A DNA stretch of 64,000 nucleotides from a virus: positions 9-64,008 of the IMG/VR virus record IMGVR_UViG_3300049061_000067. The stretch is one strand, 5' to 3'. The notes below the pieces were generated by a model. The model did not search any database and had not been told where the DNA came from. It saw nothing but the letters and a program-made list of their open reading frames with translations. A program made the translations under genes and the position numbers. Of this stretch, positions 12,554-59,555 are shown one piece after another (the stretch's first letter is position 1; each line of letters begins with the position of its first letter).

Positions 12554-12611
12554 TAGCAAGATGGCGGGCGGCTGGCCTTCCGAGGAAAGCAATTAACCGC
12601 CCCTTGCGCCG

Positions 12612-15989: not shown

Positions 15990-16400
15990 CTATTCCTTTG
16001 GTATTTCCGGCGATGGCATCCAGTAGCGCACGTCTACCCCTCTGCGCATCCCCTCTCGGGCGTCAACGTACACAAATCCCGCGTCGTCAAAGTACTCTCC
16101 GCTGATAGCCGCATCGGAGTAATTGAGATCATATTCAGCAAGCAATACACGTTGCGCATTCTCTGGCAACTTTTCCTTAACGCTAATAAAGTCAGACGCT
16201 AGCCATGCAGCCTCAATGCTCTGCTTGTCAAACTGACACTGATAACAGCCTTCTTCTTTCCAGCGGAGCTGAAACTGGCAAGGACACAACATCACACGTT
16301 GATACAGCCGGCGTAGCGCTTGGGCAACGGGATCAACACGGTCTCCCGCAGACCCACTAAAGTTTTCGATCTGCCGCTCAATTTCAGGCCTCATAATCAA
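15990..16400 (-). CDS. Hypothetical Cys-containing protein
   Basis: ORF track. Adjacent to the fucosyltransferase gene. Confidence 0.4.
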   Translation of the reverse strand: MIMRPEIERQIENFSGSAGDRVDPVAQALRRLYQRVMLCPCQFQLRWKEEGCYQCQFDKQSIEAAWLASDFISVKEKLPENAQRVLLAEYDLNYSDAAISGEYFDDAGFVYVDAREGMRRGVDVRYWMPSPEIPKE

Positions 16401-17169
16401 TTATCTGCCAGCCTTCGCTGTAGATATCCTCGCCAGTGATCGGCGTATATCGCGGTCCAAACCACGGGCGTGGTGCAATCACGCGCTTGTTTGATGCCTC
16501 ACCCAGAATCGCTGCCATTGCGCTGTAGGCTGAGTTGGCTATGATGAACGATGCGCATCTTTTAAGTAACCGGAAATCATCAAGGTAGTTGCGTCCCTCG
16601 CTGTAATCAACGTCACTACCAAACATTCGCTTGCACTCGGCAATATCGTCGCTGAAGACAAGAAACCGAGGCTTAGGTCTTCCAAACATGGTTGCGTCGT
16701 AATAGAACCGTTGCATTGCTGCCCGGTAGTAACTCTCAGGCACACGCGGGTGATAGCCGCCAGTGTAATCGCCGCGCCTGACATGAATGCCGACGTAATC
16801 GCTTTGTGCAGGCTCGTCAGTCATGCGCAGCCACCAGCAAACCTCGTCAAGACAGTGGACGAAATAGCGCACACTTTGCAGGTGCCCGCTGAGGCTGACA
16901 CTCTCCGTTAGGCGTACGTCGTGATAGCCCCAGTCAATGAAACGGTCAGGCAGTGTTGGACCATCGTAGACAGGCAGTGGGTTAACAAAGTGACGATATA
17001 CGTCGCAGTCCTCAGTTGAGCCAAAGCGTTGTTGATGGTCATGATTGATCCAGCGCGGAAAGGCGAAGTCAAAGCCGTTGCGACGAGCAATCCCTATCGT
17101 CGACGCCACCTGAAACAGACCGTTCGCGAATCGGCCGTAGCTGCCTAGGGCAGAAAATGTCACTATCAC
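16384..17169 (-). CDS. GT11-like alpha-1,2-fucosyltransferase
   Basis: N-terminal GRFANGLFQVAS resembles the GxGNQmFQyA motif. HVRRGDY matches the HxRRxD motif of fucosyltransferases. Also VFSDD and ANSAYSAMAA motifs. Confidence 0.6.
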   Translation of the reverse strand: MIVTFSALGSYGRFANGLFQVASTIGIARRNGFDFAFPRWINHDHQQRFGSTEDCDVYRHFVNPLPVYDGPTLPDRFIDWGYHDVRLTESVSLSGHLQSVRYFVHCLDEVCWWLRMTDEPAQSDYVGIHVRRGDYTGGYHPRVPESYYRAAMQRFYYDATMFGRPKPRFLVFSDDIAECKRMFGSDVDYSEGRNYLDDFRLLKRCASFIIANSAYSAMAAILGEASNKRVIAPRPWFGPRYTPITGEDIYSEGWQIIDYEA

Positions 17170-18119
17170 GACTGCTCACCCCACACTTGATGCACCATGC
17201 CTCCCCCTGATCCAGCATCTCCCACTCGTGCGCGATACCAGTCGAAGGTTGAGCAGAGTCCGTCATACAGGCTGATTTTAGCATGCCAGCCAAGCGCAGC
17301 GAGGCGCGTGCTGTCCAGTAGCTTGCGTGGCGGACCATCGGGCTTGCTGGCATCAAACTTTATCTCGCCACGATAGCCGACAACCTCAGCAATCATGTGG
17401 GCCAGTTCACTGATGGTGACTTCCTGCCCGGAACCTACGTTGATTGGCTCGCTGTCATTGTATTCAGCCATCAGGATTATCAGTGCATCAGCAAGATCGT
17501 CAACGTGAAGGAATTCGCGCAGCGCCTTACCAGTGCCCCAAAGCGTGATTGAGCGATCCTCGTTGCATGCTGCCCGGTACAGCCGCGACATTAGCGACGG
17601 GATCACATGCGCGTCGATGGAGTCAAAGTGATCGTTAGGGCCGTAGAGGTTGGTAGGCATGGCGCAGATGGCGTTAAAGCCGTATTGCTTGCGGTAAGCC
17701 TGGCACATCTTCAGTCCCGCAATCTTGGCAATTGCGTACCACTGGTTTGTCGGCTCAAGTGGGCCGGTGAGTAGTGCGTCTTCACTGATTGGCTGTTGTG
17801 CGGCACGCGGGTAGATGCAGGATGAGCCGAGGAACAGAAGTTTCCCGCAATCGTTTAGCCGGGCAGCGTTAATAACATTGCACTGGATTAGAAGATTGTC
17901 GCGGATGAAGTCAGCGGGACAGGTGGAGTTCGCGTGAATGCCGCCGACCTTGGCCGCCGCGAGATAGACATGCTGGATCTTATTACCCCAAAAGAAACCG
18001 TAGGTGTCTGCCTGGCTTCTTAGGTCAAGTTGCGCGTGGGTATGTGTAACAGCATCAGGTATACGCCGCAGCAATGCACTACCAACAAGTCCAGTGTGAC
18101 CTGCAATGTAAACGCTCAC
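17166..18119 (-). CDS. fcl: GDP-L-fucose synthase (GDP-4-keto-6-deoxy-D-mannose 3,5-epimerase/4-reductase)
   Basis: MSVYIAGHTGLVGSALLRRI (Rossmann GxxGxxG) resembles the E. coli Fcl N-terminus. Size and pattern of a short-chain NAD(P)-dependent epimerase/reductase (YxxxK region present). Confidence 0.75.
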   Translation of the reverse strand: MSVYIAGHTGLVGSALLRRIPDAVTHTHAQLDLRSQADTYGFFWGNKIQHVYLAAAKVGGIHANSTCPADFIRDNLLIQCNVINAARLNDCGKLLFLGSSCIYPRAAQQPISEDALLTGPLEPTNQWYAIAKIAGLKMCQAYRKQYGFNAICAMPTNLYGPNDHFDSIDAHVIPSLMSRLYRAACNEDRSITLWGTGKALREFLHVDDLADALIILMAEYNDSEPINVGSGQEVTISELAHMIAEVVGYRGEIKFDASKPDGPPRKLLDSTRLAALGWHAKISLYDGLCSTFDWYRARVGDAGSGGGMVHQVWGEQS

Positions 18120-26225: not shown

Positions 26226-27113
26226 CTATTGATTTATCCAAACGTGAAAGCACCTGCACCAGTCGCCCCCGGCGCACTCGGGATTTGGCGCAGGTTGTAG
26301 ATCGTCTTCGTTAGTCGCCGTCTTGCCATCTTCATCTGCGCATGGCTGACAAACGTTCTGGTCTAACAGCGCACTGTACTCCACGCGCTCCCACTCATCA
26401 CGGCGGTTTTCGGCTTCGTCGCTGCGACCAATGCTGATAACACGATTAGCCAGCCCTGTAGCCGCACGGTCGATATAGCCGACTGAGCCGGTAGCAATCT
26501 CGCTGGTGACAGCAGCAATCAGCGCTGCGCCTGTCAGACCCAACAGCGAGTGACGCGCGGCGGCGGCGATAATGCGTGATTGCACGTCGTTGGTAACGCG
26601 GCTGGTGGTGAGATCGGTGAGCAGGTCAAGCTCGTCAAAGTCGTCTGCGTCAGGCGCGTCAGCCTTCTGGCCCAACTCGGCAGCCACCAGCATGCGTCCC
26701 TGTCGATGCACCGCCACAAGCTGCTTGCTTAGGTCCGTGCGCATCGCGTCAGGCACCTGCAACACCAACTCGTGATAGTCAGCAGGCTTCACTTTCCTGA
26801 TGCGTTTCAACCCGTTCGTGACTAGCTCGCTGCGCAGGTCCAGCAGCACTTTGCCAATGGACTCTTTGGCTGACTCCTGTGCCTGAGCAACGCCCTTGAC
26901 GGCAATCTTCTCGTGCTCTTTAGGCTCACGGCTAAGCGTTAGACCGTCGTAGTCGAAGGACTTGCGCTCGAGGTGGTTCAAGCCAAGGTGAGTGTAGAAG
27001 GCGGTGGCTTTAGCTTCGCCGTGTGTGTCGATAGCCTGCTGCCAGCCATGTGCCAAGCGCAAGGCAGTTGCCGCTTCAAGTTTGAGTTGTAGTACTTTAG
27101 CTTGCAGGCTCAC
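26226..27113 (-). CDS. Head morphogenesis protein (Mu gpF / SPP1 gp7 family)
   Basis: Position downstream of the portal gene. ~295 aa with a conserved C-terminal Cys cluster (CQPCADEDG...CAGGDWCRC), typical of the family. Confidence 0.6.
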   Translation of the reverse strand: MSLQAKVLQLKLEAATALRLAHGWQQAIDTHGEAKATAFYTHLGLNHLERKSFDYDGLTLSREPKEHEKIAVKGVAQAQESAKESIGKVLLDLRSELVTNGLKRIRKVKPADYHELVLQVPDAMRTDLSKQLVAVHRQGRMLVAAELGQKADAPDADDFDELDLLTDLTTSRVTNDVQSRIIAAAARHSLLGLTGAALIAAVTSEIATGSVGYIDRAATGLANRVISIGRSDEAENRRDEWERVEYSALLDQNVCQPCADEDGKTATNEDDLQPAPNPECAGGDWCRCFHVWINQ

Positions 27114-28654
27114 GATTTCATAAACTCTCGCATCTGCTCTTCCATCGACTGCATCATTCGATCCACGTCAGCAAACTTTGCCAGCGAGGCAGGGTCAGTG
27201 GGCGTCACTGGTTTTGGCTCCTGTGAACCGTCACCCATTGCAATAACCTGCTCGGGGCTGGTAGGAGTGCTAAGCGATGGAATAATTCTGTACTCGCCAA
27301 GTGGTTTGCCTACCGGCTTAAGCCCGCATGCTGATAGCGCTTGGTCGTAGGTAATTAATCCGGCATTGAATTGCTGCACGGTACGCTTAACCACCGCATC
27401 CTTGTCCTCTTCCAACACGCGCACGTTGGACGTGTCAAACCAGAATTCAGCATCGTCAAGGTCGTCAAACTCAGGCTTCAATTGCCAGTTGATCTCCTCG
27501 GCCCAAGTGGTTTGCAGTGGGATGATTACTTCCTCGTAGCCTTGCTGGCGGGCCTGCTCACTGGAAGCGTAGCTGGTGCCGTTCTGCAAACCGACCAACA
27601 GGCCCAGCGTCGTAGCCGGGATCTGGAGGACCGCCGCCACACGTGATTCAGGGATTAAGCGCAGTGCTGACAGGTCCAACTCCTGCGGACTAAACCCCAC
27701 CTTCTCGAAGTCAATTGGCTCACTGAACACAACAGGCTCGCCAGCGTGATCGCCGGTGGTTTTGCGCAGCCAGCCTTCCTTCATGGCGGCAGCCTTAGTG
27801 GCGTCAACCCTGACTTCCTTGTCCTTGGGCGAGATCACCGGCACCTGAATGCCCATATTGCGCATGATGGCGGCAGTGAACTGGGCCATCTTATCGTCGC
27901 CGTAGAGTTCCTTAACAAGGGGCTCAAGCGGACTGCGCGTGCGCCGGTTTTCCATCAGTGGCCCACGTTTCAGGTGCAGCACGTCGGCGGCAGGCCATAG
28001 CTCAGGTGCCTTGCCGGGCACGTCAAACTGGTAGTGGCTGATGAAGGGGTCAAGGTTGGCTTCCTGGGGCACGGGAGGCGAACCATTGTCGCCGGGCCAG
28101 CGTGGACGTATCAGGTAGTGGGGAATGTGCCAGAGTTCGACTACCTGACTGGTCACACTGCGCACCTTTTTGAAGCGCACGCCACCGTCAACCCACCAGT
28201 CGACTGATGCAGCATGCGAGTAGTTGGCCCAGACGTGATGCTTGTTGGGGCGACGGATGAGTTGAGCGAGAGGATGCAGCGGGTCGATTGCAACGTCACC
28301 GGCTTTGTTGGTGCGGCGGATTACGGGCTGGGCTTCAGGCAGCCGCGTGCCGGTGTAGTTGAACACGCAGGCAACCAGCGAGTGGCCGTCGAGTGCGCCT
28401 ACTTCGCGGCGATAGTCAATAGCCGACGTTGGGCCTCGATGCCGAAAGCGATAGTCAATGAAGTTGTCGTACGTGGCGGCTGCGGATGAGAAGTCAGGTG
28501 GTGCGGTAGCAGCGGCTTTCTGCTCGCGAGGCAACAGTGCGCGATAGGCGGTTGTGACACGCTTGATTAGACTGAATTCAGCCATTGAGGCCTCACTTCT
28601 TTCTGTCCAGATGGCGGTCAAACCAATAATAGAAGGCAACCAGACTTCCGACAA
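27110..28654 (-). CDS. Portal protein
   Basis: 514 aa, immediately downstream of TerL. Composition is typical of a portal protein. Confidence 0.65.
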   Translation of the reverse strand: MSEVWLPSIIGLTAIWTERSEASMAEFSLIKRVTTAYRALLPREQKAAATAPPDFSSAAATYDNFIDYRFRHRGPTSAIDYRREVGALDGHSLVACVFNYTGTRLPEAQPVIRRTNKAGDVAIDPLHPLAQLIRRPNKHHVWANYSHAASVDWWVDGGVRFKKVRSVTSQVVELWHIPHYLIRPRWPGDNGSPPVPQEANLDPFISHYQFDVPGKAPELWPAADVLHLKRGPLMENRRTRSPLEPLVKELYGDDKMAQFTAAIMRNMGIQVPVISPKDKEVRVDATKAAAMKEGWLRKTTGDHAGEPVVFSEPIDFEKVGFSPQELDLSALRLIPESRVAAVLQIPATTLGLLVGLQNGTSYASSEQARQQGYEEVIIPLQTTWAEEINWQLKPEFDDLDDAEFWFDTSNVRVLEEDKDAVVKRTVQQFNAGLITYDQALSACGLKPVGKPLGEYRIIPSLSTPTSPEQVIAMGDGSQEPKPVTPTDPASLAKFADVDRMMQSMEEQMREFMKS

Positions 28655-28706: not shown

Positions 28707-30044
28707 TTAGTACATCTCCAGTTCACGTGATGCTTGCGCCAGTCCCAGTTCTGTCATGGCCCACACCATTGCATCCATGCGGTTTGGGCTGGCATCTCCC
28801 GGCGTCCACAGGCACATCTCGTCTTCCAGTTGCGCAAAGTTCCTGCCTACATGATGTGCGCGTCCATGCTCGTACACGCTGGCAATAGGTTCTGCTCGCG
28901 TTTGCTTGCCGCGCGAGGCGTGCACTAATTTAACACGAATGCTTGGGTCAACCGTAGAAATTGTCAGGGAAACCATTTCACCGCCATTGTTCGCTTCGGC
29001 AACAATGCAATTGGCTTGGTGGTGGTGATAAGCCTTGACTGCTGCTGTAGCCCAGGTCTTGGGCGAACCTTGCACGGAGTTGTCAGCAATAACGTAGCCA
29101 ATATTCGCCGTCTTGCCTGCGGTGATAATGCCTGCTTCGTCGCCGGTTGAACTGGCGCTTGGATCGATAGCAACCACAATGCGATCCAGGTCCGGCGCTT
29201 CGTCAACTCGCAGGGACTCGATCAACTCACGCTTCCACAGTGCTCCCGGCGCTTCGTCAACGTCTTCGGCCTCAATCTCCATGCGATAAGCCAGCGCCGT
29301 CATATCGTCGCTGATTTCACTAAGCGCTTCCTTGCTGAGATACGGGTTGTCGTGCGAGGTGAAGTGAAAAGCTGCGTAGCGCACGCTGGTTAACGCCTCA
29401 CGCTGATATTTCTTGAATAGCTTGCCTGCATGTTGCGGGTCATTGGCTTTGCTAACGGAGCGTGAATGCAAGCTCGGCGGCGTGTAGATGAACACTGCAT
29501 CACCGTCGTTATCAAGCAGCATTGGAGCGCCGACCAGACCCCATGCATCCTCATTCATCAACTGCCATTCGTCAAGGTACAAGTCGTCAGCATAGTCGCC
29601 GCGCAATGAGTCGGCGTTCCATGCGGTCTTAGCGCGAATGCGCTGCTCGGTGCCGGGAATCTCCAGCGTGTGGTAGGTTTCGTTTTTAACCACCTGACCC
29701 GCGTCGATGGCCGGTTGCAGTGCGCGCACCACCGTCACCCAATAGCGATGGATCTGTTCTTGTGTTGGTGCTGCGTAAAGCTGCCTGCGCCCTTTGAGGA
29801 AGCGCTTGACCGAGCGAATTGCAACGCCAACTGTCTTGCCGCCACGACGTCCGGCACGGACCACAATGCGCTTGGCGGTGGAGTCGACGAAGGCTTGTTG
29901 TTTAGGGTGATCGGCGGTAGCGGGAAGGTTGACAAGGAGTTCAGTTGATCGCTTTGCTCTCAGCACTCGGAGAAATATCGGCTTCTCTTCCGGCGTCAAG
30001 GTTTGCCATCTCTGCCTCAAATTGTCGGTCAAGTTCTGAGACAT
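28707..30044 (-). CDS. Terminase large subunit
   Basis: Walker A VRAGRRGGKT. ATPase plus C-terminal nuclease-like half. 445 aa. Confidence 0.8.
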   Translation of the reverse strand: MSQNLTDNLRQRWQTLTPEEKPIFLRVLRAKRSTELLVNLPATADHPKQQAFVDSTAKRIVVRAGRRGGKTVGVAIRSVKRFLKGRRQLYAAPTQEQIHRYWVTVVRALQPAIDAGQVVKNETYHTLEIPGTEQRIRAKTAWNADSLRGDYADDLYLDEWQLMNEDAWGLVGAPMLLDNDGDAVFIYTPPSLHSRSVSKANDPQHAGKLFKKYQREALTSVRYAAFHFTSHDNPYLSKEALSEISDDMTALAYRMEIEAEDVDEAPGALWKRELIESLRVDEAPDLDRIVVAIDPSASSTGDEAGIITAGKTANIGYVIADNSVQGSPKTWATAAVKAYHHHQANCIVAEANNGGEMVSLTISTVDPSIRVKLVHASRGKQTRAEPIASVYEHGRAHHVGRNFAQLEDEMCLWTPGDASPNRMDAMVWAMTELGLAQASRELEMY

Positions 30045-32003: not shown

Positions 32004-33308
32004 TTAAAGAGGTTTGAATCCTTCATACCATGAGCCGTCTGAGCGGCGATAGCGGAAGCCAAGGCGCTCAAGTTCATCCTTAAGCTTCCTTGTGGTTAGC
32101 GTGTAACGGTAGCCGTTTGCCGAGCACCAGCTAAAGTAGGCGCCGTGGACTTCGGCGGTTTGTTCACGGTGCTCGACGGCTTTTTGGTAACGATCCTCAA
32201 GGAACAACGCAACATGGTCGTTATCTTTGTGAAACTCCTGCGATGCGATGCGTACGGAGAGTGGCACGTCAAAATGACCGCGCTCGCGTAAACGTCGCAG
32301 CCCTGTCAAAAATACGTTAACCATTGCTTGCCCGTTGGCAATTATTTCCTGTTTGATTTGCGGCTGAATCTCCACGTCCAAGGGCGGCAGTTTTACGATG
32401 TCAGTGCGGCGGAATATCCCATTGTCGGCATCGTGGATGTAGGGTAGGTGATTCATTGCGCACAGCAACTTGCAACGTGGCGTCAGGTCATATCCGGGTT
32501 GCCCTTTTTGCTCAACCCGTACTGCTTCGCCGCTAATGATACGATTGATAACTGTGGTACAATAGGCATTCTTGACAGGCGGGGCTTCTGAGGCGATAGC
32601 AAGCGTTTTGCCTGCCAGATTCACTAGACCAAAGCGATTGCTGATGTCTGCCGGCGACAGCGTTACCCATCGCTGCGGACCTAGGGCTGCCTGTACTGCT
32701 TCGATAAACGTGCCCTTGCCACAGTTCGGAGGCCCAACCAGCCAGACGGACTTTTCAAACCTTGTGTCCGTGGTCAGGCATAAACCGCCAAACTCTTCGG
32801 TAAACATGCGCACTTCGGCGTCAATGCGTTCGCCCCATTTAGCCCATGCGTCTGACTTAGCCGCAGGGTCGTAATTGAACGGGAGCTTGCTGGTTGCGTA
32901 ATACTTTGGCGAATGCGGCAGGCGTTGAAACGTGTTCAGGTCCAATACACAGTCGTTAAACAGCAGCACGTCCGGGTTGTTGTCAAACTGTTCGTCAGGC
33001 ACCGCACGATAGTCACGCACGAGATCTGAAACACTGGCAATGGCTGCCGACGTCACCTGAAAGTGCTTGTCATCTTCCGCCAGCGATGCTATCTCTTTGC
33101 GGATTCGCAACCCCGGCACCTCGAGGAACACGCCGTCTTTATAGCGAAAGAAACGACCCTGCCCGTAAATTACCGTCTTATGTGCCTGTAGATAGCGGTT
33201 GCGCATCCACAAGTGCGGTGAGAACGCCTTGATCTCCGAGGACGCATCAGCGGCAGGCGGGGTGTTGCCAGCCTTGCCCTTACCGGGTTTAGGGGATTTT
33301 CCTGCCAT
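32004..33308 (-). CDS. DNA primase/helicase, P4/D5 family (SF3 NTPase)
   Basis: Walker A LVGPPNCGKGTF. ~430 aa. An N-terminal D5_N-like region precedes the NTPase. Confidence 0.65.
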   Translation of the reverse strand: MAGKSPKPGKGKAGNTPPAADASSEIKAFSPHLWMRNRYLQAHKTVIYGQGRFFRYKDGVFLEVPGLRIRKEIASLAEDDKHFQVTSAAIASVSDLVRDYRAVPDEQFDNNPDVLLFNDCVLDLNTFQRLPHSPKYYATSKLPFNYDPAAKSDAWAKWGERIDAEVRMFTEEFGGLCLTTDTRFEKSVWLVGPPNCGKGTFIEAVQAALGPQRWVTLSPADISNRFGLVNLAGKTLAIASEAPPVKNAYCTTVINRIISGEAVRVEQKGQPGYDLTPRCKLLCAMNHLPYIHDADNGIFRRTDIVKLPPLDVEIQPQIKQEIIANGQAMVNVFLTGLRRLRERGHFDVPLSVRIASQEFHKDNDHVALFLEDRYQKAVEHREQTAEVHGAYFSWCSANGYRYTLTTRKLKDELERLGFRYRRSDGSWYEGFKPL

Positions 33309-44771: not shown

Positions 44772-45029
44772 ATGGACGCCGAACAATTACAAACACTGGT
44801 AACCAACGCACTACTGGACCACTGGCCGCCGCATCTGGGCGTGAAGACTGGGGCGGAGAAAATCGCCTATCTGGCTGAGCGGTTGCGAGAGTCAGTAGAT
44901 GTCCAGGCACGCAACGACGAATTGATAGAAGAGAATCGTGATCTGACCGAAAGGGTTGGCGACTTGGAGTCTGACGTTGAGGACCTTGAAGAAGAGATCG
45001 AGGAGTTGAAAGCTAAGGTCAAGCAATGA
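44772..45029 (+). CDS. Acidic coiled-coil protein
   Basis: ORF track. Confidence 0.35.
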   Translation: MDAEQLQTLVTNALLDHWPPHLGVKTGAEKIAYLAERLRESVDVQARNDELIEENRDLTERVGDLESDVEDLEEEIEELKAKVKQ

Positions 45030-46108
45030 TCACCCTCCCCCGCGCCCAACTTGCCGCTGAGCTTGCATTGCTTACTGTTACAGCTGAGCGCAAAACTACG
45101 ATCCCTATACTCAGCACTGTGAGGTTTGAGTTCACCGGCAACACGCTTACGTTTACCAGCACCGACATTGACACTACTATCATCACTGAGATTGAGGCGT
45201 CAGGTGAGCTGTGGTCAGGATGTGTACCGTCAAAGCAGTTACAGGAGTTGGTGCGGCTGTTCAATGGCGACACAGTTGAGTTCACGCCTAAGCCAAACGA
45301 ACGCATTCAGGTCAAGTGTGGTAAGTCAAGTCACAAGTTGCCTGCGTTCCCAGTGGCAAGCTTCCCTGAAACGCAGCAGGCACAAGTGGAGATGGCGGCC
45401 TTGGACGGCGCTCAACTTAAGACGGCAATCGTCCGCGCGCTGAGATGTACCTCCCCTGACGCCGTTGAGGCATGGATGCATGGTATATCGTTGCGGTCGC
45501 GCGATGGAGTACTCACTGTGGCAGGCACCAACAGCCGTCACTTTGCGGTGACAGAGATTGCCACGACGCTGGATGTTGACGTCCTGCTGCATGTTCGTGC
45601 TGCAACTGCGCTAACCAAGTTTCTTGACGGTGAAGTGGAAGTCGGCGCAAACAGTAATCAGGCAGTCTTTCGCCAAGGGTCTAAAGTGTTTGCTACTCGA
45701 CTGCTTGACGCCAAGTTTCCTGACTGGCGACCACTGGTGCCAACTAGCTTCAAACATTCGTTTGTGCTGGACAGTGCGGCCACGGCACTGGCATTCAAGC
45801 TGGCAGCAGTGACCGCCAAAGAGTCGGCGCTGATTCCAGTCCCTTTGCGTCTCAGCCTGTCGCAAACGGAGCTGACCATTGAGACAAAGGAAAGCGAGAT
45901 GGGCCATTCCGTTGAGACTCTGCCGATTGACTGTCCCACGCTAAACGGCGACAAGCTGACTATTGGCGTCAACGGGCAACACTTTATCTCGTTTGTCGAT
46001 CTGGAAAGTAATCCGGTCATGGCTTTCAACGATGACCTGCGATTGTTTCAGTTGGGCGTTGAAGGTGAACCAGGCTATCGCTATATCACCATGACGTTGA
46101 AAGCATAA
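45026..46108 (+). CDS. DNA polymerase III beta sliding clamp homologue
   Basis: 360 aa. TIPILSTVRFEFTGNTLTFTSTDIDTTI resembles E. coli DnaN TLPILGNLLLQVADGTLSLTGTDLEMEM. HKLPAFPVASFPE resembles FSLSTLPAADFPN. Confidence 0.6.
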   Translation: MITLPRAQLAAELALLTVTAERKTTIPILSTVRFEFTGNTLTFTSTDIDTTIITEIEASGELWSGCVPSKQLQELVRLFNGDTVEFTPKPNERIQVKCGKSSHKLPAFPVASFPETQQAQVEMAALDGAQLKTAIVRALRCTSPDAVEAWMHGISLRSRDGVLTVAGTNSRHFAVTEIATTLDVDVLLHVRAATALTKFLDGEVEVGANSNQAVFRQGSKVFATRLLDAKFPDWRPLVPTSFKHSFVLDSAATALAFKLAAVTAKESALIPVPLRLSLSQTELTIETKESEMGHSVETLPIDCPTLNGDKLTIGVNGQHFISFVDLESNPVMAFNDDLRLFQLGVEGEPGYRYITMTLKA

Positions 46109-46383: not shown

Positions 46384-46558
46384 GCTAAAGTTCAAGCCTA
46401 CAGGCAAGCGTCGTTACTGCCCGCATTGTCGTGCCACACGGTTGACGAAGATCTCCACAACTACCATTGAGTGGGACTGCTACGTCGAGGCATGTAAGCG
46501 CTGCGGTAACTGGCTCATTAAGTGGCCCAAGAAGACTTATGACGACTACATACGCTGA
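46367..46558 (+). CDS. Zn-ribbon protein
   Basis: CPHCR...CKRCGN. Confidence 0.4.
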   Translation: MASYAELKFKPTGKRRYCPHCRATRLTKISTTTIEWDCYVEACKRCGNWLIKWPKKTYDDYIR

Positions 46559-48869
46559 TTTTCTGGACAGCAAACGCATCACGGTTGCGCCGAGCGGGTT
46601 CACACCTGAGAGTCTGAGTTCGCATTCATTTGACTTTCAGCGTGACATTACCTGTTGGGCGTTAGAACGCGGCAAGGCGGCAATTTTCTCCGATTGTGGA
46701 ACAGGGAAAAGTTTAATGGAGTTAGACTGGGCTGAGCGTATAGTCCAAAAGCTCAATAAGTCAGTGCTAATCCTCGCACCATTGGCGGTGTCTAGGCAAA
46801 CAGTACGGGAAGGTGCAAAGTTTGGGATCGGGGCGCGTCTTGCTGTCCAGCAGTCGGACATAACAAAGCCCGCGATCTATGTCACCAACTATGAAAAGCT
46901 GCATCATTTCGATCCGTCTACGCTCGTCGGCGTGGTGCTGGATGAGTCGTCAATCCTGAAGTCCTACTCTGGCGCTACTCGTAATCTACTGGTTGAGCAA
47001 TTCGCCAACACGCCAATGAAGCTTTGCGCTACGGCTACGCCCGCACCCAACGACTACATGGAACTTGGCAATCACAGTGAATTCCTTGGTGTGCTAACGC
47101 GCACTGAGATGCTATCAACCTTCTTTGTTCATGATGGCGGTGACACAAGCAAGTGGCGGCTTAAGGGCCATGCTGAGGAAGAATACTGGAAGTGGGTATG
47201 CCAGTGGGCCGTGATGCTGCGTCAGCCTGCCGACTTAGGCTACGACAACAATGGCTTTGTGTTGCCGCCACTAAGCTATCACCATCACGTAGTCAAGTCA
47301 GCACGCAATCTTGACGGGTTCCTGTTTCCAGTGGAAGCGCAAACACTGCTCGAACGACGCGGGGCACGTAGGAACAGCCTAAGCGAGCGTGTTGAACTAT
47401 GCGCGTCGCTGGTCAACGAGTCAACTGAGCCATGGCTGGTCTGGTGCGACCTGAACGCTGAGGGTGACGCGCTGGCAAGATTGATCCCTGATGCCGTGCA
47501 GGTAGCAGGGCGTGACAGCGACGAAGCCAAGGAAGATCGACTGCTTGGGTTTGCCGAAGGACGCTATCGTGTGCTGGTGAGCAAGCCGAGCATTGCGGGG
47601 CACGGTCTAAACCTGCAAATCTGCTCTAACCTTGCCTTCGTTGGTCTAAGCGACTCATGGGAACAGTGGTATCAGGCAGTGCGACGTTGCTGGCGCTTCG
47701 GGCAAACTCGAGAAGTCAACTGCCACGTTATTACCAGTGAGGCTGAGGGCGCCGTGGTACGCAACATCCAACGCAAGGAAGCTGACGCCGCGCGCATGGC
47801 AAAGGAGATGGTGAAGCATATGTCGGTTTACAACACTGAGGCAGTGCATACGGGCACGGTCAGAACCGCTGACACTTACAAGACTGACGTGAAGCGCGGC
47901 GAGCGTTGGGAGATGCGGTTGGGTGATTGTGTTGAGCTGATCAAAGACGTGGCAAGCGATAGCGTTCACTATTCGATATTTAGCCCGCCGTTTGTATCGC
48001 TTTACACGTACAGTTCGTCTGAGCGCGATATGGGTAACGCGCGGGGCGACATGGAGTTCTATGCGCATTTTCAGTTTCTCGTTAAAGAGCTATACCGCGT
48101 GCTGTTACCCGGCCGCTTGCTGTCGTTTCACTGCATGGACATTCCGGCAATGAAAGAGCGTGACGGCTATATCGGCTTGAAAGATTTCCCTGGCGATCTT
48201 ATCCGCATATTTCAGTCAGCGGGGTTTATCTACCACTCACGAGCGTCGATCTGGAAAGATCCGTTGATTGAGGCAACACGCACCAAGGCGCTTGGACTGA
48301 TGCATAAACAAGTAGTCAAAGACAGCGCGATGTGTCGGCAGGGACTACCGGATTATCTGATTACCATGCGCAAGCCCGAAACGAACAGTGAGCCGATCGC
48401 GCGGCCCAACGGGTTTACGGAATTTATTGGCGAGGATGAACCGAAAGCGCGAAAAGGCGAAGCGGTTATTCGAGCTAGGGACATAGCCAATTATGCGGGC
48501 ATGACCAGCGATGATCCGGTTTACAGCCATCAAGTCTGGCGACGCTATGCCTCCCCTGTCTGGATGGACATCAGCCAGTCTGACACGCTACAACGTGAAT
48601 CTGCGCGAGAAGAGGCCGACGAGCGACATGTGTGCCCTTTACAGCTGCAAGTGATTGAGCGCGGACTGGAACTATGGACCAATGTGGGCGATGTGGTCCT
48701 AGATCCTTTTTCAGGCATTGGCAGCACTGGTTACGTAGCCGTGCAACGTGGGCGACGCTTCATCGGGTTTGAACTTAAGGCCAGCTACCACCAGCAAGCC
48801 TGCGCGAACCTGCGCAACGCAGAATCAGCAATAGAACAGACGACGCTGTTTAGCGAGGCCGCAGGATGA
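46539..48869 (+). CDS. SF2 helicase fused to a beta-class DNA methyltransferase (N4C/N6A; the SPPF motif suggests N4-cytosine)
   Basis: Walker A DCGTGKS, DExx VLDESS, motif III ATATPAPN. C-terminal half has IFSPPF (motif IV) before DPFSGIGSTG (motif I), the beta-class circular permutation. Confidence 0.6.
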   Translation: MTTTYADFLDSKRITVAPSGFTPESLSSHSFDFQRDITCWALERGKAAIFSDCGTGKSLMELDWAERIVQKLNKSVLILAPLAVSRQTVREGAKFGIGARLAVQQSDITKPAIYVTNYEKLHHFDPSTLVGVVLDESSILKSYSGATRNLLVEQFANTPMKLCATATPAPNDYMELGNHSEFLGVLTRTEMLSTFFVHDGGDTSKWRLKGHAEEEYWKWVCQWAVMLRQPADLGYDNNGFVLPPLSYHHHVVKSARNLDGFLFPVEAQTLLERRGARRNSLSERVELCASLVNESTEPWLVWCDLNAEGDALARLIPDAVQVAGRDSDEAKEDRLLGFAEGRYRVLVSKPSIAGHGLNLQICSNLAFVGLSDSWEQWYQAVRRCWRFGQTREVNCHVITSEAEGAVVRNIQRKEADAARMAKEMVKHMSVYNTEAVHTGTVRTADTYKTDVKRGERWEMRLGDCVELIKDVASDSVHYSIFSPPFVSLYTYSSSERDMGNARGDMEFYAHFQFLVKELYRVLLPGRLLSFHCMDIPAMKERDGYIGLKDFPGDLIRIFQSAGFIYHSRASIWKDPLIEATRTKALGLMHKQVVKDSAMCRQGLPDYLITMRKPETNSEPIARPNGFTEFIGEDEPKARKGEAVIRARDIANYAGMTSDDPVYSHQVWRRYASPVWMDISQSDTLQRESAREEADERHVCPLQLQVIERGLELWTNVGDVVLDPFSGIGSTGYVAVQRGRRFIGFELKASYHQQACANLRNAESAIEQTTLFSEAAG

Positions 48870-50252: not shown

Positions 50253-50348
50253 TGGACTTACCATTACAAGGCGTCAGGGCTCAGCGGCGTCTCGTTTGCC
50301 GTGTAAATAATCATTGACATCTAACCCGCTCGGATTATGATTCAGATT

Positions 50349-50462
50349 ATGAGGAAATGCCAACGCTGCAAGTACGAATGGAAGCCGAAAACGGCTAATC
50401 CAAAGGAATGCCCAAACTGTAAATCAAGAAAGTGGGAGAAAGATGCTAAACGTACACGTTAA
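50349..50462 (+). CDS. Mini zinc-ribbon protein (37 aa), paralogue of 57518-57658
   Basis: MRKCQRCKYEWKPKTANPKECPNCKSRKWEK. Promoter TTGACA-16-TATGAT at 50296-50323. Confidence 0.35.
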   Translation: MRKCQRCKYEWKPKTANPKECPNCKSRKWEKDAKRTR

Positions 50463-53521: not shown

Positions 53522-53956
53522 CTACGCCTCTTTGCTGAGGCGTACCACATTTGCCAGACACAGTTTGCGCTTGCGAAACACGCGCGGGAACAGTCCGATC
53601 TCCACTGGAAACGTCTGGCCGCTGCGCTCTCTCCCGTAGAGCACCGTATCGCGTCGGCCCATGCTGCGAGTCTGCATTGCCTGTCCGAAGCTTTGAACGT
53701 AGCCTACGTGCCCGTGACGATAGTTTTCCGGCACCAGCTCGATCAGATCCAGCCCAGCCATCTCGTCAGTCACGTAGCCAAAGATCGCTTCGGCACCCGG
53801 CGTAGCGTAGATTACCTTCTGCGTCTCGATGTCCACCAGCACGAAGCCTGCTTTGTCTGCGCCCCAGATCTTGATAGCGTCAATGTCGCTTTGAGTGAGC
53901 ACGGACGGATCGATGTCGTCTACCACGGCTACCAGTTTGTCTAGTTCTGAGCTCAT
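53522..53956 (-). CDS. Standalone FixL-like heme-PAS domain protein
   Basis: AEAIFGYVTDEMAGLDLIELVPENYRHGHVGYVQSF...GRRDTVLYGRERSGQTFPVEIGLF aligns with the Bradyrhizobium FixL heme-PAS [36 protein letters not shown]...GRIVTGKRRDGTTFPMHLSIGEM, including the proximal His. Confidence 0.55.
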   Translation of the reverse strand: MSSELDKLVAVVDDIDPSVLTQSDIDAIKIWGADKAGFVLVDIETQKVIYATPGAEAIFGYVTDEMAGLDLIELVPENYRHGHVGYVQSFGQAMQTRSMGRRDTVLYGRERSGQTFPVEIGLFPRVFRKRKLCLANVVRLSKEA

Positions 53957-54300
53957 TGTTTCAGGCTAATTCGCAGAAAGTTGAACACGAAGCCAAGCAG
54001 CAGCATTATTACACTGGCAACCAACCCTTTGATCCACTTGCCGTTTTCAATTGCTTTGGCCTTGGTTTCCTTGGCCGCTTCTTCCAGCATGTGGATGCGC
54101 TGGTTGATAACACTGATTTGCGCCGTCGCCATGTCCGACTCAAGCTTACCAAGCGTCTTGTTTAGCTGGACCAGTTGAAACTCGACGCCAACCATCTTCT
54201 CGGATAGTTGCGAGACTCGCCCCTCGCGCTCGCGTAACTGCTCCTGTATGCCAGCCAGTCCGCGCGTAACAAGTTCGACAAGCTTCTGTTCATCGGTCAT
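53953..54300 (-). CDS. Coiled-coil protein with a C-terminal TM anchor (holin/spanin-like)
   Basis: C-terminal GLVASVIMLLLGFVFNFL. Confidence 0.35.
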   Translation of the reverse strand: MTDEQKLVELVTRGLAGIQEQLREREGRVSQLSEKMVGVEFQLVQLNKTLGKLESDMATAQISVINQRIHMLEEAAKETKAKAIENGKWIKGLVASVIMLLLGFVFNFLRISLKQ

Positions 54301-55499: not shown

Positions 55500-55690
55500 T
55501 CCATCTCTCCAACGAGCGATGTTTCGCCAATCCTTACCGCAACCGTCTTCCAATAGACCAGCCGCTTGCGAAGGACTGGAGCGCAATACGTTACCTTCCC
55601 ACGCTCAACTACAAACCCGGCACAGAGGTACGCCGTTGTCACTCTGTACAGTCCGTCTCTCAATTGCAATCTCCCTGCTTCAGCCGCCAA
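55496..55690 (-). CDS. Hypothetical small protein
   Basis: ORF track. ATGA coupling to the downstream gene. Confidence 0.3.
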   Translation of the reverse strand: MAAEAGRLQLRDGLYRVTTAYLCAGFVVERGKVTYCAPVLRKRLVYWKTVAVRIGETSLVGEME

Positions 55691-55781
55691 TCAAGCCACT
55701 CCTCAAACGAGTGGTCTTTGGCAAAGTTGCGCGCTGGTAATTGGCGTTCAAGTTCGTAGATGTAGTGGGCTTCGGTGTAGG

Positions 55782-56315
55782 TCACGGTTGCAACGCTGCC
55801 TCCAGTCGGTTGACTTGAACCTTGAGCTTGCGCTCGAGTTCTTTTTCATCACGCGCAATCACCGTAGCGCTGCGCGCCTCGGCGCTGGTCCCAGTGCCGG
55901 AATAGAACACCACCAGCGATGCAAGTATTCCCTCGGCAATGTTCGCGGCTTGCTGAATACGCGGATGGGCAGCAAAGTTCTGACGGTTGATGATGACCCT
56001 GAAACATTGTAACGCGCTAAGGGATGCCTGAAACTTCCGCGCCCTCTTCTCAGCGGCTGAAAGTTCCGAGGGAATGGCGTTGAATGCATCCTGCAAGGTT
56101 AGCGCGCATCCGGCACCATCGTTAAAGTCGGTGATAATTGCGGTAGCCTTGGCTTGCGGAATAGCACCAGCACTGACAAGTGAGTTAACCAGCGGGCCGG
56201 ACGCCGCAAGTGCTAGTCGAAACGATTTGATTGCAGTGCTGCCGCCGCAGCCGTATTCAAGGACCACGGTTAATAGCAGTGCAGCAATAAGCTTGCTTCG
56301 TGAGAATAGCTTCAT
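55782..56315 (-). CDS. Putative lipoprotein (177 aa)
   Basis: MKLFSRSKLIAALLLTVVLEYGC is a signal peptide plus Cys. Strong RBS AAAGGAGAT. Confidence 0.45.
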   Translation of the reverse strand: MKLFSRSKLIAALLLTVVLEYGCGGSTAIKSFRLALAASGPLVNSLVSAGAIPQAKATAIITDFNDGAGCALTLQDAFNAIPSELSAAEKRARKFQASLSALQCFRVIINRQNFAAHPRIQQAANIAEGILASLVVFYSGTGTSAEARSATVIARDEKELERKLKVQVNRLEAALQP

Positions 56316-56477
56316 AAAGGGATCTCCTTTAGGGATCGTCCAAGATGCGCCAGCAGTGTACCATTTTCAAGTAGTCTACGGCGAAAAAGTTACGGAGCTA
56401 AGTTGAGCTTGACTTGTAATACTGATTTATAGTAAGTTGCCGTCGCTTGAAAGTTTAGTGAGTTGAAAGGTAAATAA

Positions 56478-57284
56478 ATGAGATACTTGTCAATGTTAAT
56501 TCTCGTGGTGCTAGCCGCTCTAACAAGTGGCTGTAACTACGCCGAGGAACAAGGAACCGTCGCGGTGGAGACTAGTTACGGCAAGATTGTAAAAGTTCAC
56601 GAACCGGGAGAATCGTTTAGCTGCTTCTCGTACGGTTGCGACTCTTACGAAGTTGACTTGCGCGATCACATGGACGGGGTAGACTGTGCGGGTGTAACCA
56701 GCGACAATATTCCTTTCTACATGAAGGTAGACGTGGTTCACAAGCCTATCAAAGATCGCGTTGCGGAGTATATTTCGTTATTCGGGGCGGAACCTGATGG
56801 GCGTAGTCAAAAGCGTTGGGCCGTATTAAAGCAGCATGTGGGAAACGCCTGCCGCAATGCTACGTCGGGTCGCTATAACGCTTATGATTTGCGTTCTAAG
56901 CAAGCCGAAGTATTAGCAGCAATTCAAGCTGAGCTTGCTCCAAAACTGAGCGCGGAAATGGCCTTGAGCCTTTCAAGTGTTGGCATGGAGATTCAGCCAC
57001 AGTTTTCAGACCCACGTATTGACGAAGCAGCAAACGCTGTCGTGGCAGCACAGAAGCAAAAGGAAGCTGAGGGCGCGTTAAAGGCCGCTGCTGATATTCG
57101 CGCAGAACGTCAACAGGTAGAAGCGCGGATTTACGCAAACCCGCTGGCTTATAAAATTGAAGAACTGAAACTCCTTAAGGAAATTGAGCAAGTACGCGCC
57201 GAAGGGATTGCACGACACCAAGGAACGCTCATTCTTGGTCAAACGGGCATCACGCCACAACTGCAAATAGGAGGGCAAAAGTGA
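56478..57284 (+). CDS. SPFH/Band-7 (prohibitin/HflKC-like) domain lipoprotein
   Basis: Lipoprotein signal MRYLSMLILVVLAALTSGC. C-terminal coiled-coil region ...RIYANPLAYKIEELKLLKEIEQVRAEGIARH is typical of the SPFH family. Confidence 0.55.
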   Translation: MRYLSMLILVVLAALTSGCNYAEEQGTVAVETSYGKIVKVHEPGESFSCFSYGCDSYEVDLRDHMDGVDCAGVTSDNIPFYMKVDVVHKPIKDRVAEYISLFGAEPDGRSQKRWAVLKQHVGNACRNATSGRYNAYDLRSKQAEVLAAIQAELAPKLSAEMALSLSSVGMEIQPQFSDPRIDEAANAVVAAQKQKEAEGALKAAADIRAERQQVEARIYANPLAYKIEELKLLKEIEQVRAEGIARHQGTLILGQTGITPQLQIGGQK

Positions 57285-57511
57285 AGCTCATAGGAATAGT
57301 TGTTGGCATCCTTTTAGCAATTAGTTTTCTGACAGCGCTATACTTAATCGTGCGTAGTTTCCATCATCAGTGGAAATGGCAAAATAAAGTAAATGAAAAC
57401 CGGATGCGTAGAGCTGTGATGGAAGAGTTTGATATTCAGTACGAGGTTGACGAGAAAGGTTTTGTTGCTCCCGTTAAGCGTAGCGGCAGAGGACATAGAT
57501 CGCCAATGTAG
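57281..57511 (+). CDS. Small single-TM protein (76 aa), co-operonic with the SPFH gene
   Basis: LIGIVVGILLAISFLTALYLIV. ATGA overlap. Confidence 0.45.
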   Translation: MKLIGIVVGILLAISFLTALYLIVRSFHHQWKWQNKVNENRMRRAVMEEFDIQYEVDEKGFVAPVKRSGRGHRSPM

Positions 57512-57517
57512 ACCTTA

Positions 57518-57658
57518 ATGAAAAAGAAAATCACTAAGGAGCAGTACCATTGTAAATGTGAGCGTTGCGGACATGAGTGGGTCAGTCGTAAAGGCGTTCC
57601 AATGGTCTGCCCGAGTAAACGCTGTCATAACCCACGCTGGAATGAAAAGGTCAGTTAG
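57518..57658 (+). CDS. Mini zinc-ribbon protein (46 aa)
   Basis: CKCERCGHEW...CPSKRCHNPRW. Paralogue of 50349-50462. Confidence 0.35.
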   Translation: MKKKITKEQYHCKCERCGHEWVSRKGVPMVCPSKRCHNPRWNEKVS

Positions 57659-57665
57659 AACGCCA

Positions 57666-59555
57666 CTAGACCACATTCACCCGCACTGCCACCACGCCAC
57701 ACGTCGACTGAAACGTGATTGTGCGACTTTGCCGCTTGACCTTGACGCTAAACTGTTTAACCGTGCTGGTTGGACCGGCGCTCCAGACCAGCGGCGACAC
57801 TGTTACCTGCCCGTCGCTGCCGGTGACTCGCACTTCTGTTGGACCGCTTAAATCTTGCAGCGTCACAGCAATTGTTCCAGTGCTGTTTCTGCGGATCGAC
57901 ACTGATGCTGGTGCTGAGATGGTGCAGGGAACTGTTGGCGGTGGTTGCGGCTCAGGCTCCGGTGCTGGCGCAGGCGCTGTGCCGGGCTCAGTCTGCGTCT
58001 GCTGCACCCACGCGCTACCTGTCCACTTGTACCAGAAGTTATCAGTACCCAACACGTAGACGGTCTGTGCCAGATACTTGTACACCGAACCCTCGCCGCC
58101 GCCTGCCTGTACGCCGTCACGAAGCGTCTGTCGCGCGCTGCCAATGGTCCATGTTGCATGGGCAGCGTCAACGATGGTCGTTGCCTTGGTACCATCAGGG
58201 CTAGGCTCAGGCAGCGGACTGGGTGAAGGCATTGGCGTTGGTGCCGGAATCGGCGTGCCACCTGTCCACGCCAGATACGACGGCACTCGCCGTGCATGCT
58301 GGTTGTAGTTCTTCGGCGTGCCGTCCATCATGGCGCGCACTCCATCGCTGCCACCGTAAGCCGCGTCCCACAGCTCGTCACCTGCTGTCTTGAAGAATGG
58401 ATCGCCTGATAGTTGAAACGCCTTGCCGAACGCAGGCAGGATGGTGGAGATCGCCTGTCGCGTGCTTGGCAGCCACCATGCTTCCAACGCTGTCCACGGG
58501 AATGCAATGTCACCCTTCTCGTAGCGTGTCGGATTGACTGACGTACCACCGTGGTAAAAGTAGTGGAAGCCGCGTATGCGCTTGCCTGAGACTTGCTCGA
58601 TCTGGTCCTTGATGTACGGACCGTTGCTGTACAGGTGCCGACAACCGCGCGTGATCTGGCTCTTGACGTTCTCTTTAACTGTCGCATTGCCGGTTAACTC
58701 ATACACGTCACACAACGCAGCCAGCAGCAGCCCCACCATAAACGGCTGCATCACGCCGACCAGCGAACCGCCATCATCGTCAAGCCAATCGTCATTCCAA
58801 ACCCATGCGCCGTCTGCACGTTGCGTACGCCCGAAGTATTGGACTGCGGCTGACTCGACGTCTGCAAGGTACTGCGCTCGCAATTGTGCGCCATTGGTTG
58901 CCGTGCCGCCTGCTGTTAGCGGAAACGAGTCAGGCAACACCTTCGCCAGCCATGTTGCATAGTGCAGCGTGAATGCACCCTCACGCAGGTCGTACAGTGC
59001 CGAGTTCAAGCGTCGCAGCACGTAAATGTCAAAGAAGTAGCGGGTGTAGGAGTTGATCCAGTCCCATAGCTCGGGCCTGCCGTCTTCCGCCCGAAGGGTT
59101 AGTCCGGCTATGCCTGCATGGCGTGGTGGAGGGGCCGCGTTGTCTTCACCTTGTGGCGGCGGTAGCCATGCGCGAATCCTGCCTTCGCCAATCCACGCGC
59201 CGTTTTTCCACCACTCGTCTGCGGCCGTGCGATGCAATTGCATCATGTAGTCGTTTCCCGATCTTGCGTAAGCAATACGCAGACTTTGAGGCAGGTCATA
59301 GTAATGATGGTTTACGTAAACATCGAATGGACCGTTAGCCCAATTGCTAACAGCCTGTTTCCATGCATCCTCAGACTCAAACTGCTCACGCAGCGGTTTA
59401 GGCGGGGATAATACATGCGGTGACTCCCCATGCTCCCGCGCCTTGGCAACCTGCGTCTGGTCGAACCAGCTGTTGCCGATTGGGGTAAGTGGGCCAGTGA
59501 TGAATTCTGCTGCTGACATGGCTGAGTGCTCCTTGAATGGATATAAGAAAGACAC
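57666..59555 (-). CDS. Large multi-domain enzyme: putative (alpha/alpha)-barrel polysaccharide hydrolase/lyase, Pro-rich linkers, small Trp-rich domain and C-terminal Ig-like domain. Tail-associated depolymerase or lysin.
   Basis: 629 aa. Linkers PIPAPTPMPSPSPLPEPSP and PAPAPEPEPQPPP. Position at the end of the tail-fibre operon. Confidence 0.4.
   Translation of the reverse strand: MSFLYPFKEHSAMSAAEFITGPLTPIGNSWFDQTQVAKAREHGESPHVLSPPKPLREQFESEDAWKQAVSNWANGPFDVYVNHHYYDLPQSLRIAYARSGNDYMMQLHRTAADEWWKNGAWIGEGRIRAWLPPPQGEDNAAPPPRHAGIAGLTLRAEDGRPELWDWINSYTRYFFDIYVLRRLNSALYDLREGAFTLHYATWLAKVLPDSFPLTAGGTATNGAQLRAQYLADVESAAVQYFGRTQRADGAWVWNDDWLDDDGGSLVGVMQPFMVGLLLAALCDVYELTGNATVKENVKSQITRGCRHLYSNGPYIKDQIEQVSGKRIRGFHYFYHGGTSVNPTRYEKGDIAFPWTALEAWWLPSTRQAISTILPAFGKAFQLSGDPFFKTAGDELWDAAYGGSDGVRAMMDGTPKNYNQHARRVPSYLAWTGGTPIPAPTPMPSPSPLPEPSPDGTKATTIVDAAHATWTIGSARQTLRDGVQAGGGEGSVYKYLAQTVYVLGTDNFWYKWTGSAWVQQTQTEPGTAPAPAPEPEPQPPPTVPCTISAPASVSIRRNSTGTIAVTLQDLSGPTEVRVTGSDGQVTVSPLVWSAGPTSTVKQFSVKVKRQSRTITFQSTCGVVAVRVNVV

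Follow-up and report, generated by a model that had tools for sequence, protein, structure and literature searches.

Proteins with an SPFH (Band-7) domain are known from several membrane systems that resemble, in part, the phage locus considered here. HflK/HflC of E. coli and the prohibitins PHB1/PHB2 form SPFH cages on the side of the membrane opposite the cytoplasm, and these enclose FtsH or m-AAA proteases. A further arrangement is the SPFH-NfeD operon, exemplified by QmcA-YbbJ, YqiK-YqiJ, FloA/FloT with NfeD, and the archaeal stomatin pair PH1511-PH1510. Among phage loci, the bor and lom type morons of lambda are envelope genes with promoters of their own, set against late operons. The locus in question belongs to a presumed soil-bacterium phage and lies in a stretch of 64,000 nucleotides, positions 9 to 64,008 of IMG/VR virus record IMGVR_UViG_3300049061_000067. 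This whole stretch is called the window below, and all composition baselines and gene means refer to it. It encodes an SPFH lipoprotein whose gene overlaps that of a very small membrane protein. The conserved unit is this SPFH and partner pair and not, as an earlier reading of the sequence alone had proposed, a triad completed by the zinc-ribbon gene downstream.

SPFH proteins have been annotated in Kuttervirus, T4-like phages, GIB1, Xanthomonas phage X1, Rhizobium phage Pasto, and giant viruses. In the literature on virus-encoded SPFH proteins that we found, no function in phage infection has been assigned; none is given for any of the phage SPFH lipoproteins of the phrog_200 type (PMC3220722, PMC1524935, PMC13239085), and an HflK/C-like protein encoded by a prophage has been reported as a virulence factor in Pasteurella (PMC9872710). 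The present locus provides a defined unit for this question, combining an obligate pair, strong conservation of the SPFH protein, mobility, and the existence of host pairs.

The first gene (56478-57284, plus strand) encodes a protein of 268 residues that matches Pfam Band_7 (PF01145) over residues 24-204 with 39.7 bits, against a cut-off of 23.6. It also matches the PHROG family phrog_200, 'lipoprotein', with residues 7-260 aligned to profile positions 88-355 of 379 (E 1.4e-12); PHROGs has no curated cut-off, and this match is weak beside that of the SPFH protein of phage PhiSH19 (E 1e-57). Residues 1-19 have the features of a lipoprotein signal peptide, with a basic n-region, a hydrophobic h-region, and the lipobox LTSG-C19, which ends at Cys19 (N terminus MRYLSMLILVVLAALTSG-C19). 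The cysteine is invariant and is preceded by G or A in 20 of 20 SPFH homologues, and we infer from this signal that the product is exported and lipidated on Cys19. The family match and the invariant cysteine together bear out the sequence-only reading, which had called the gene an SPFH/Band-7 lipoprotein.

The AlphaFold2 model of this protein (mean predicted local distance difference test score (pLDDT) 77.8) comprises an alpha/beta SPFH domain at about residues 27-176 and long coiled-coil helices over residues 179-246, divided into helices 179-220 and 222-246 (about 65 residues of helix). They are followed by a C-terminal HQGTLIxG segment that is nearly invariant in homologues and poorly predicted in the model. 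No solved structure was matched at the sequence level. When the model was compared with Foldseek, the best matches were prohibitin (8rrh), erlin (9vvj), and HflK/C (9cz2, 7vhq, and 7wi3), followed by stomatin and QmcA, with E values of 1e-12 to 1e-8 over at least 250 columns. As modeled, the protein has the full cage-forming SPFH architecture, consisting of the SPFH domain, long coiled coil, and C-terminal strand, and it most resembles the members of the family that face away from the cytoplasm, namely prohibitin, erlin, and HflK/C.

The second gene (57281-57511, plus strand) begins with a GTG codon that overlaps the TGA stop of the SPFH gene (GTGA), an arrangement by which it is evidently translationally coupled to the first. 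In its 76-residue product, an N-terminal membrane helix is followed by a basic juxtamembrane patch (RSFHHQWKWQNK), a helical extension, and a small beta-hairpin. In the structure model, one long helix comprising the membrane segment and the basic extension is followed by the small hairpin, so that the single-helix partner described earlier is recovered, complete with its basic patch. The patch lies directly C-terminal of the membrane helix in all homologues of gene 2, and because of it the positive-inside rule predicts an N-out, C-in topology with a tail of about 50 residues in the cytoplasm. The 54 homologues of the partner are all 73-87 residues in length and lie on the same contigs as SPFH homologues. 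Searches of Pfam with gene 2 gave chance-level matches only, and none to the NfeD/OB-fold family PF01957.

The SPFH protein has 39 metagenomic homologues, with identities of 53-78%. Eleven phage loci were counted as independent: the window, L001, L002, L003/4, L005/6, L007/8, L009, L010/11, L012, L014, and L015. L013, which was also inspected, is a near-identical fragment of the window's own phage. The SPFH and partner genes are adjacent in 11 of the 11 loci, and in every one the start of the partner overlaps the SPFH stop or falls within 5 nucleotides of it. Across phages the partner retains only 30-57% identity, and the SPFH protein is better conserved than its partner and far better than the surrounding phage backbones. 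Such conservation fits either a constraint imposed by self-assembly or a conserved host target. Neither blastn and tblastn searches of 50,697 phage records with the region and the SPFH protein nor a scan of IMG/VR with the window SPFH protein returned anything. In L009 (6001-6802, plus strand), the SPFH gene is represented by two overlapping open reading frames (ORFs), 6001-6639 and 6590-6802, beside an intact partner; either the gene is a frameshifted pseudogene or the assembly is at fault here.

The pair is found in very different places. In the window and L001 it stands as a plus-strand island flanked by minus-strand operons, in L002 it lies inside the tail-fibre region, and in most other relatives it runs in the same direction as nuclease, ERCC4, Dam, clamp, or polymerase genes. 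Within 6 kb on each side, the pair is the sole similarity to the window in L003, L007, L010, and L012, and is accompanied by one further weak match each in L009 and L015. Because it is shared amid otherwise unrelated contexts, the pair behaves as a mobile two-gene cassette, and the suggestion that the cluster is an acquired accessory element holds to this extent: what it has in common with other phages is often the pair and nothing else. In one relative, an IS605 OrfB/TnpB (Cas12f-like) gene (L005 283-1332 and L006 177-1271, both minus strand) precedes the pair by about 1.2 kb and could be a vehicle for local rearrangement. Near the cassette in L009 (2533-4134, plus strand) and L015 (4691-7627, plus strand) there are genes for a TROVE (Ro60-like) protein and two Tet/JBP dioxygenase/GIY-YIG pairs.

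Composition sets the cluster apart only in part. Region 56316-57660 has a GC content of 47.0%, about 3 standard deviations (sd) below the window mean of 53.4% (sd 2.1% for segments of 1345 bp); just 0.13% of such segments are this low, and the global minimum, 56254-57598, overlaps the cluster. By gene, the GC fraction is 0.499 for the SPFH gene, 0.424 for the partner, and 0.461 for the zinc ribbon, the gene mean being 0.528 (sd 0.041), and comparably low values occur in several other small genes of the window. Codon usage in the SPFH gene is unremarkable (rank 13 of 34, no outlier) and lends no support to a foreign origin. The lower GC noted in the sequence-only reading is thus upheld; since the GC dip is real but codon usage is unremarkable, composition alone is weak evidence of recent foreign origin.

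Relatives of the SPFH protein are not confined to phages. An HMMER search of 1.84 billion representative sequences found only 68 clusters matching the SPFH profile, nearly all of them of 255-300 residues with either a lipobox or an N-terminal membrane helix, and the profile score falls from 440 to 210 bits outside the phage clade. For scans of host genomes, made with one genome per species, an alignment of close homologues found nothing and a broad one (A5) was too diverse, and an intermediate alignment (A6) was the one that worked. It identified 134 chromosomal loci, almost all in metagenome-assembled genomes (MAGs) of Blastocatellia/Pyrinomonadaceae (Acidobacteriota), including two closed chromosomes. 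The counts of partners and anchors that follow use the 80 loci retained. All 80 copies are 34-39% identical to the window SPFH protein over the full length. An N-terminal membrane helix serves as the anchor in 71 of them; since a single family includes members with either type of anchor, a periplasmic SPFH domain is to be expected for the lipobox and the helix-anchored versions alike. At the SPFH stop of 42 of the 80 loci there begins an ORF of 39-65 residues that has a basic patch as well as an N-terminal membrane helix, compared with 0.6% for a comparable micro-ORF at random positions. The host SPFH loci share no other gene with the window, and the two that were inspected (L076 and L024) have ordinary cellular neighbours of housekeeping type in a non-prophage context. 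The sequence-only reading was silent on these chromosomal relatives, the only cellular ones found, with their similar micro-partner. They and the binning of L018, a phage contig described below, are the grounds on which we infer that the host lineage is Blastocatellia/Pyrinomonadaceae, which would provide a host lead for a family of metagenomic phages of 54-79 kb.

These observations are probably, if by no means securely, best accounted for by an SPFH scaffold in the periplasm that has a membrane partner, is akin to a host module, and serves the phage during infection. On the periplasmic side of the inner membrane, the lipoprotein would assemble as a ring or dome, fencing a patch of membrane as its structural relatives do. 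The helix of the partner would lie in or at the fenced patch, with its tail reaching the cytoplasm. The phage would in effect produce, during infection, a diverged version of an SPFH and micro-protein operon of the host lineage, probably so as to rearrange the inner membrane or keep it stable, or to govern the turnover of membrane proteins, until lysis. The pair itself is a mobile cargo that has passed between phage genomes with no other relationship.

Several considerations weigh against this interpretation. The phage SPFH protein itself lacks a membrane helix on which that of the partner could pack. In phage homologues and the wider family alike, the residue after the lipobox cysteine is N, S, T, or A and never Asp, which by the rules established for E. 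coli, possibly not those of the host, would direct the lipoprotein to the outer membrane and so remove it from a partner in the inner one. About half of the host loci have no obvious micro-ORF, and a hidden Markov model (HMM) of the phage partner run against the 80 host loci did not match the micro-ORFs, so that the likeness between phage and host partners is one of architecture and not demonstrated homology. The host is assigned from MAG binning and from the taxonomic spread of a single gene family. Finally, envelope lipoproteins made early in infection are also typical of superinfection-exclusion genes.

Exclusion, or envelope defence more generally, is an unlikely alternative but one that deserves to be weighed. 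The ring and its partner would alter the envelope and block the entry of later phage DNA, as T5 Llp, T4 Imm/Sp, or P22 SieA do. An envelope-located lipoprotein accompanied by a small membrane protein is compatible with such a role, as is a mobile accessory cassette, provided here with a promoter-like element of its own and placed in relatives among early or replication genes. Moreover, the phrog_200 SPFH lipoprotein of PhiSH19 lies two genes from a 'superinfection exclusion protein', although that name is an annotation only. The three proteins of the cluster have no match in PADLOC-DB 2.0 at E ≤ 0.1 and no similarity to known exclusion proteins, which leaves a role in defence or abortive infection, as the sequence-only reading had it, without direct support. 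An SPFH identity of 53-78% across otherwise unrelated phages is atypical of fast-evolving exclusion genes, and the chromosomal relatives are widespread in one class, with housekeeping-type neighbours in the two loci inspected. There is no integrase among the window ORFs of at least 295 residues, and expression from a prophage is therefore doubtful. It is because of the SPFH conservation across unrelated backbones, the widespread chromosomal relatives, and this lack of an integrase that a host-directed role is preferred to exclusion.

A host-directed role might also take a more specific form, although we consider this quite unlikely. The phage SPFH protein may be a viral mimic of the periplasmic cage of the host that co-assembles with it or replaces it, thereby capturing or releasing an inner-membrane client such as an FtsH-type protease. 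Contact with the cytoplasm would be made by the micro-partner through its cytoplasmic tail. Phage and host proteins have the same architecture, and their identity of 34-39% is comparable to that between the co-assembling subunits of HflK/C or PHB1/2. If true, this would amount to phage takeover of a membrane-compartmentalising cage.

That the pair serves lysis, by setting its timing or by controlling lysis proteins through regulation of a holin or spanin, is most improbable. Both proteins would be located in the envelope, the coiled-coil lipoprotein superficially recalls spanin components, and the sequence-only reading had placed the cluster beside small minus-strand genes that it described as lysis-like. 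Those neighbours have no matches to lysis families in HMM searches, and the position is not conserved, most relatives having the pair among nuclease, methylase, and polymerase genes; a linkage to lysis genes is not maintained. The chromosomal relatives, in the two loci inspected, lie outside a prophage context. Identity with a two-component spanin (Rz/Rz1) was considered and rejected: the SPFH lipoprotein has 268 residues, the soluble part of the partner is predicted to be cytoplasmic, which is the wrong topology, and the neighbouring genes provide no lysis-family match.

The third gene of the cluster (57518-57658, plus strand) encodes a mini zinc ribbon of 46 residues with the cysteine pattern C14xxC17...C31x4C36. 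The CxxC...Cx4C spacing agrees with its earlier description as a zinc ribbon, and it matches no Pfam or PHROG family. A second mini zinc ribbon, of 41 residues, is encoded outside the module by ORF 50337-50462 (plus strand). The two are 38% identical over 29 residues (pairwise E 2e-6), making the latter a plausible distant paralogue, much as had been proposed for positions 50349-50462.

We regard it as very unlikely that the ribbon completes a functional triad as a dedicated regulator of the SPFH operon, for instance as a Com-like translational activator. It stands directly beside the pair in 3 of the 11 phage loci: 3' of it in the window and L001, and 5' of it in L002 (5840-6004, plus strand), where the stop of the ribbon gene and the start of the SPFH gene overlap. 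The L002 ribbon, 37% identical to the window copy, matches phrog_6417 'translational regulator' (Com-like) with an E value of 1.5e-5; this is a lead, albeit not a conserved association. The other 8 loci have no ribbon beside the pair. None was noted beside the host genes, though the host loci were not searched for ribbons. Mini ribbons of this kind are multi-copy and scattered, with further examples in L003 (9806-9883), L010 (10577-10675), and L012 (8685-8777), and by a rough estimate two independent adjacencies in ten genomes are possible by chance. A triad of SPFH, membrane, and zinc-ribbon genes is thus not conserved among the relatives.

The closest homologues of the ribbon point instead to the site. 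Copies 77-83% identical to that of the window follow the pair in L001 and, in L018, an unrelated gene for a protein of 646 residues. L018, which has the closest homologue (83%), is a 75-kb phage contig in a Pyrinomonadaceae MAG (DATJKB010000744.1). In its region 6030-8141, a promoter-like block and the ribbon frame the 646-residue gene, for which neither Pfam nor PHROG has a family. The site is syntenic with that in the window, having homologous minus-strand genes upstream and a tail-fibre-like gene downstream. The SPFH pair therefore looks like the occupant of a variable cargo slot bounded by the promoter-like block and the ribbon, ahead of the tail-fibre genes. The zinc ribbon is not an obligate part of the SPFH module; it and the promoter-like block belong to the slot.

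The layout of this slot is as the sequence-only reading described it: three plus-strand ORFs, 56478-57284 (268 residues), 57281-57511 (76 residues), and 57518-57658 (46 residues), lie between minus-strand genes at 55782-56315 and 57666-59555. The unit converges on the latter, a tail-fibre-like gene, with a gap of 7 nucleotides after the stop of the ribbon gene. No intrinsic terminator was found 3' of the zinc ribbon, and an Rfam search of 55500-58500 gave nothing above chance. The upstream spacer (56316-56477), between the SPFH gene and the divergent gene 55782-56315, measures 162 bp with 40.7% GC, and so corresponds to the AT-rich region of about 160 bp reported before. A Shine-Dalgarno-like GAAAGG (56465-56470, plus strand) was recognized by inspection 7 nucleotides before the ATG of the SPFH gene.

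Within the spacer lies the promoter- or operator-like block TTGACTTGTAATACTGATTTATAGTAAGT (56409-56437, plus strand), which occurs once in the window. It is common to the window, L001, and L018, where a 27-nucleotide block TTGACTTGTA(A/G)TACTGAnTT(A/G)T(A/G)GTA precedes the plus-strand unit in spacers that have otherwise diverged. It can be read as a -35-like TTGACT with an 18-nucleotide spacer and TAAGTT (TAnnnT), or as a tandem AnTTGTRRTA repeat with a spacing of 13 nucleotides. TTGACT followed by 18 nucleotides and TA(A/C)G(T/G)T is the best conserved reading of the block; in the window it has 8 of 12 matches to sigma-70-type hexamers, for which the expected spacer is 16-18 nucleotides. An own promoter had been claimed from hexamers that do exist (TTGACT at 56409-56414, with TATAGT at 56428-56433 and TAGTAA at 56430-56435, at spacings of 13 and 15 nucleotides). 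However, a sigma-70 scan called no promoter at these hexamers or at the block, and TATAGT is not conserved among the three phages. Because an upstream block is conserved in three diverged phages, a promoter belonging to the unit is nevertheless plausible, and the block is probably a promoter or operator of unspecified type.

The rest of the window identifies it as a phage genome, with genes for a major head protein (12612-13946), portal (27110-28654), large terminase (28707-30044), primase (32004-33308), and a tail adaptor of the Gp77 podophage type (4695-5591). It is nearly the whole contig, apparently of 64,008 bp, and contains no tRNA genes. A DnaN-type sliding clamp (45026-46108, plus strand) and an 800-residue helicase-N6/N4 DNA methylase fusion (46467-48869, plus strand) are encoded; no DNA polymerase was seen in the window, and a UDG-PolA fusion is found in relatives L003, L010, and L012. 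Within the structural block (16384-18119, minus strand) are a family-11 glycosyltransferase of the fucosyltransferase type and an NAD-dependent epimerase/GDP-mannose-dehydratase-like enzyme, and a glycosyltransferase-like gene (11243-12592, minus strand) adjoins that for the major head protein. Glycosylation of the virion or alteration of the host surface is a possible role for these sugar-modifying genes. One of the small minus-strand genes that precede the cluster encodes a PAS-domain protein of 144 residues (53522-53956, minus strand) that, with its neighbour 53953-54300, is kept in a distant relative (L005 5994-6521, minus strand; 51% identity).

The large terminase (minus strand) shares 64% identity, across 82% of its length, with the enzyme of an archaeal virus, Methanosarcina virus MetMV (MK170447.1). 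An archaeal host was considered on this basis and rejected, the terminase being the sole gene shared, the GC content 42% in MetMV and 53% in the window, and the DnaN of the window bacterial in type. A literature search on phages of Blastocatellia/Pyrinomonadaceae yielded no relevant paper.

How, then, does the locus compare with known systems? With the bor and lom type morons it has in common a lipoprotein gene on the opposite strand, a promoter-like element, a lower GC content, and a position between late-type operons. There is no sequence relationship, however, and in most relatives the pair shares its direction with early genes.

HflK/C and PHB1/2 are like the window protein in having a periplasmic or luminal SPFH domain, a long coiled coil, and a C-terminal strand, and they are among its top structural matches. 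The window differs in having a single SPFH gene and no K/C or PHB1/2 paralogue pair, and its predicted anchor is a lipid on Cys19, whereas that of HflK/C is an N-terminal membrane helix. The window SPFH protein did not match the NCBIfam HflK/HflC models at E ≤ 0.1. On these three counts (one gene, a lipobox in place of a helix, and no model match), membership of the HflK/HflC group was rejected.

Likewise, SPFH-NfeD operons share the tight linkage of an SPFH gene to a gene for a small membrane protein, and QmcA-YbbJ (8z5g) is among the structural matches. The window partner, by contrast, is a single-pass protein of 76 residues without an NfeD/OB-fold, modeled as a long helix and small hairpin, and its soluble part is predicted to be cytoplasmic, whereas it is the SPFH domain of QmcA, YqiK, and the flotillins that faces the cytoplasm. 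With no PF01957 match and such a partner model, membership of this group also failed. The locus thereby offers, beside NfeD, another kind of partner for SPFH proteins of bacteria.

The phage lipoproteins of phrog_200, represented by those of PhiSH19 (74140-74931, complement), the T4-like phages RB43, 44RR, and Aeh1, and GIB1 of the Schitoviridae, have similar lengths (about 263-268 residues), a lipobox, and an SPFH domain. The protein of the Kuttervirus PhiSH19, a Salmonella phage (JN126049.1), is a lipoprotein of 263 residues and matches the family profile built here with an E value of 7e-13. They are nonetheless very distant, none being found by tblastn with the window protein in the 50,697 phage records, and their hosts are Enterobacteria, as against probable Acidobacteriota. 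PhiSH19 (L100) also has an unannotated conserved ORF of 72 residues (74931-75149, complement) with two hydrophobic segments and a match to phrog_11680 (E 1e-46). This small membrane-protein gene is upstream of the SPFH gene and overlaps it, whereas the window partner is downstream and has a single helix. The pairing of an SPFH lipoprotein with a micro membrane protein may be general in phages.

The host pairs, of which OY970389.1 (L076 5881-6765 with 6772-6924) is an example, differ in being mostly helix-anchored (71 of 80) and not lipobox-anchored, and in having shorter micro-ORFs (39-65 residues) that the phage partner profile misses. They are alike in the SPFH protein, at 34-39% identity with the same length and the same C-terminal motif, and often in the presence at its stop codon of a micro-ORF with an N-terminal membrane helix, basic patch, and short tail. 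Practical value is modest pending a phenotype. The reading of the phage protein as a mimic of the host cage, if true, would also describe a two-gene 'SPFH plus micro-protein' system, distinct from SPFH-NfeD and common to the Acidobacteriota and their phages.

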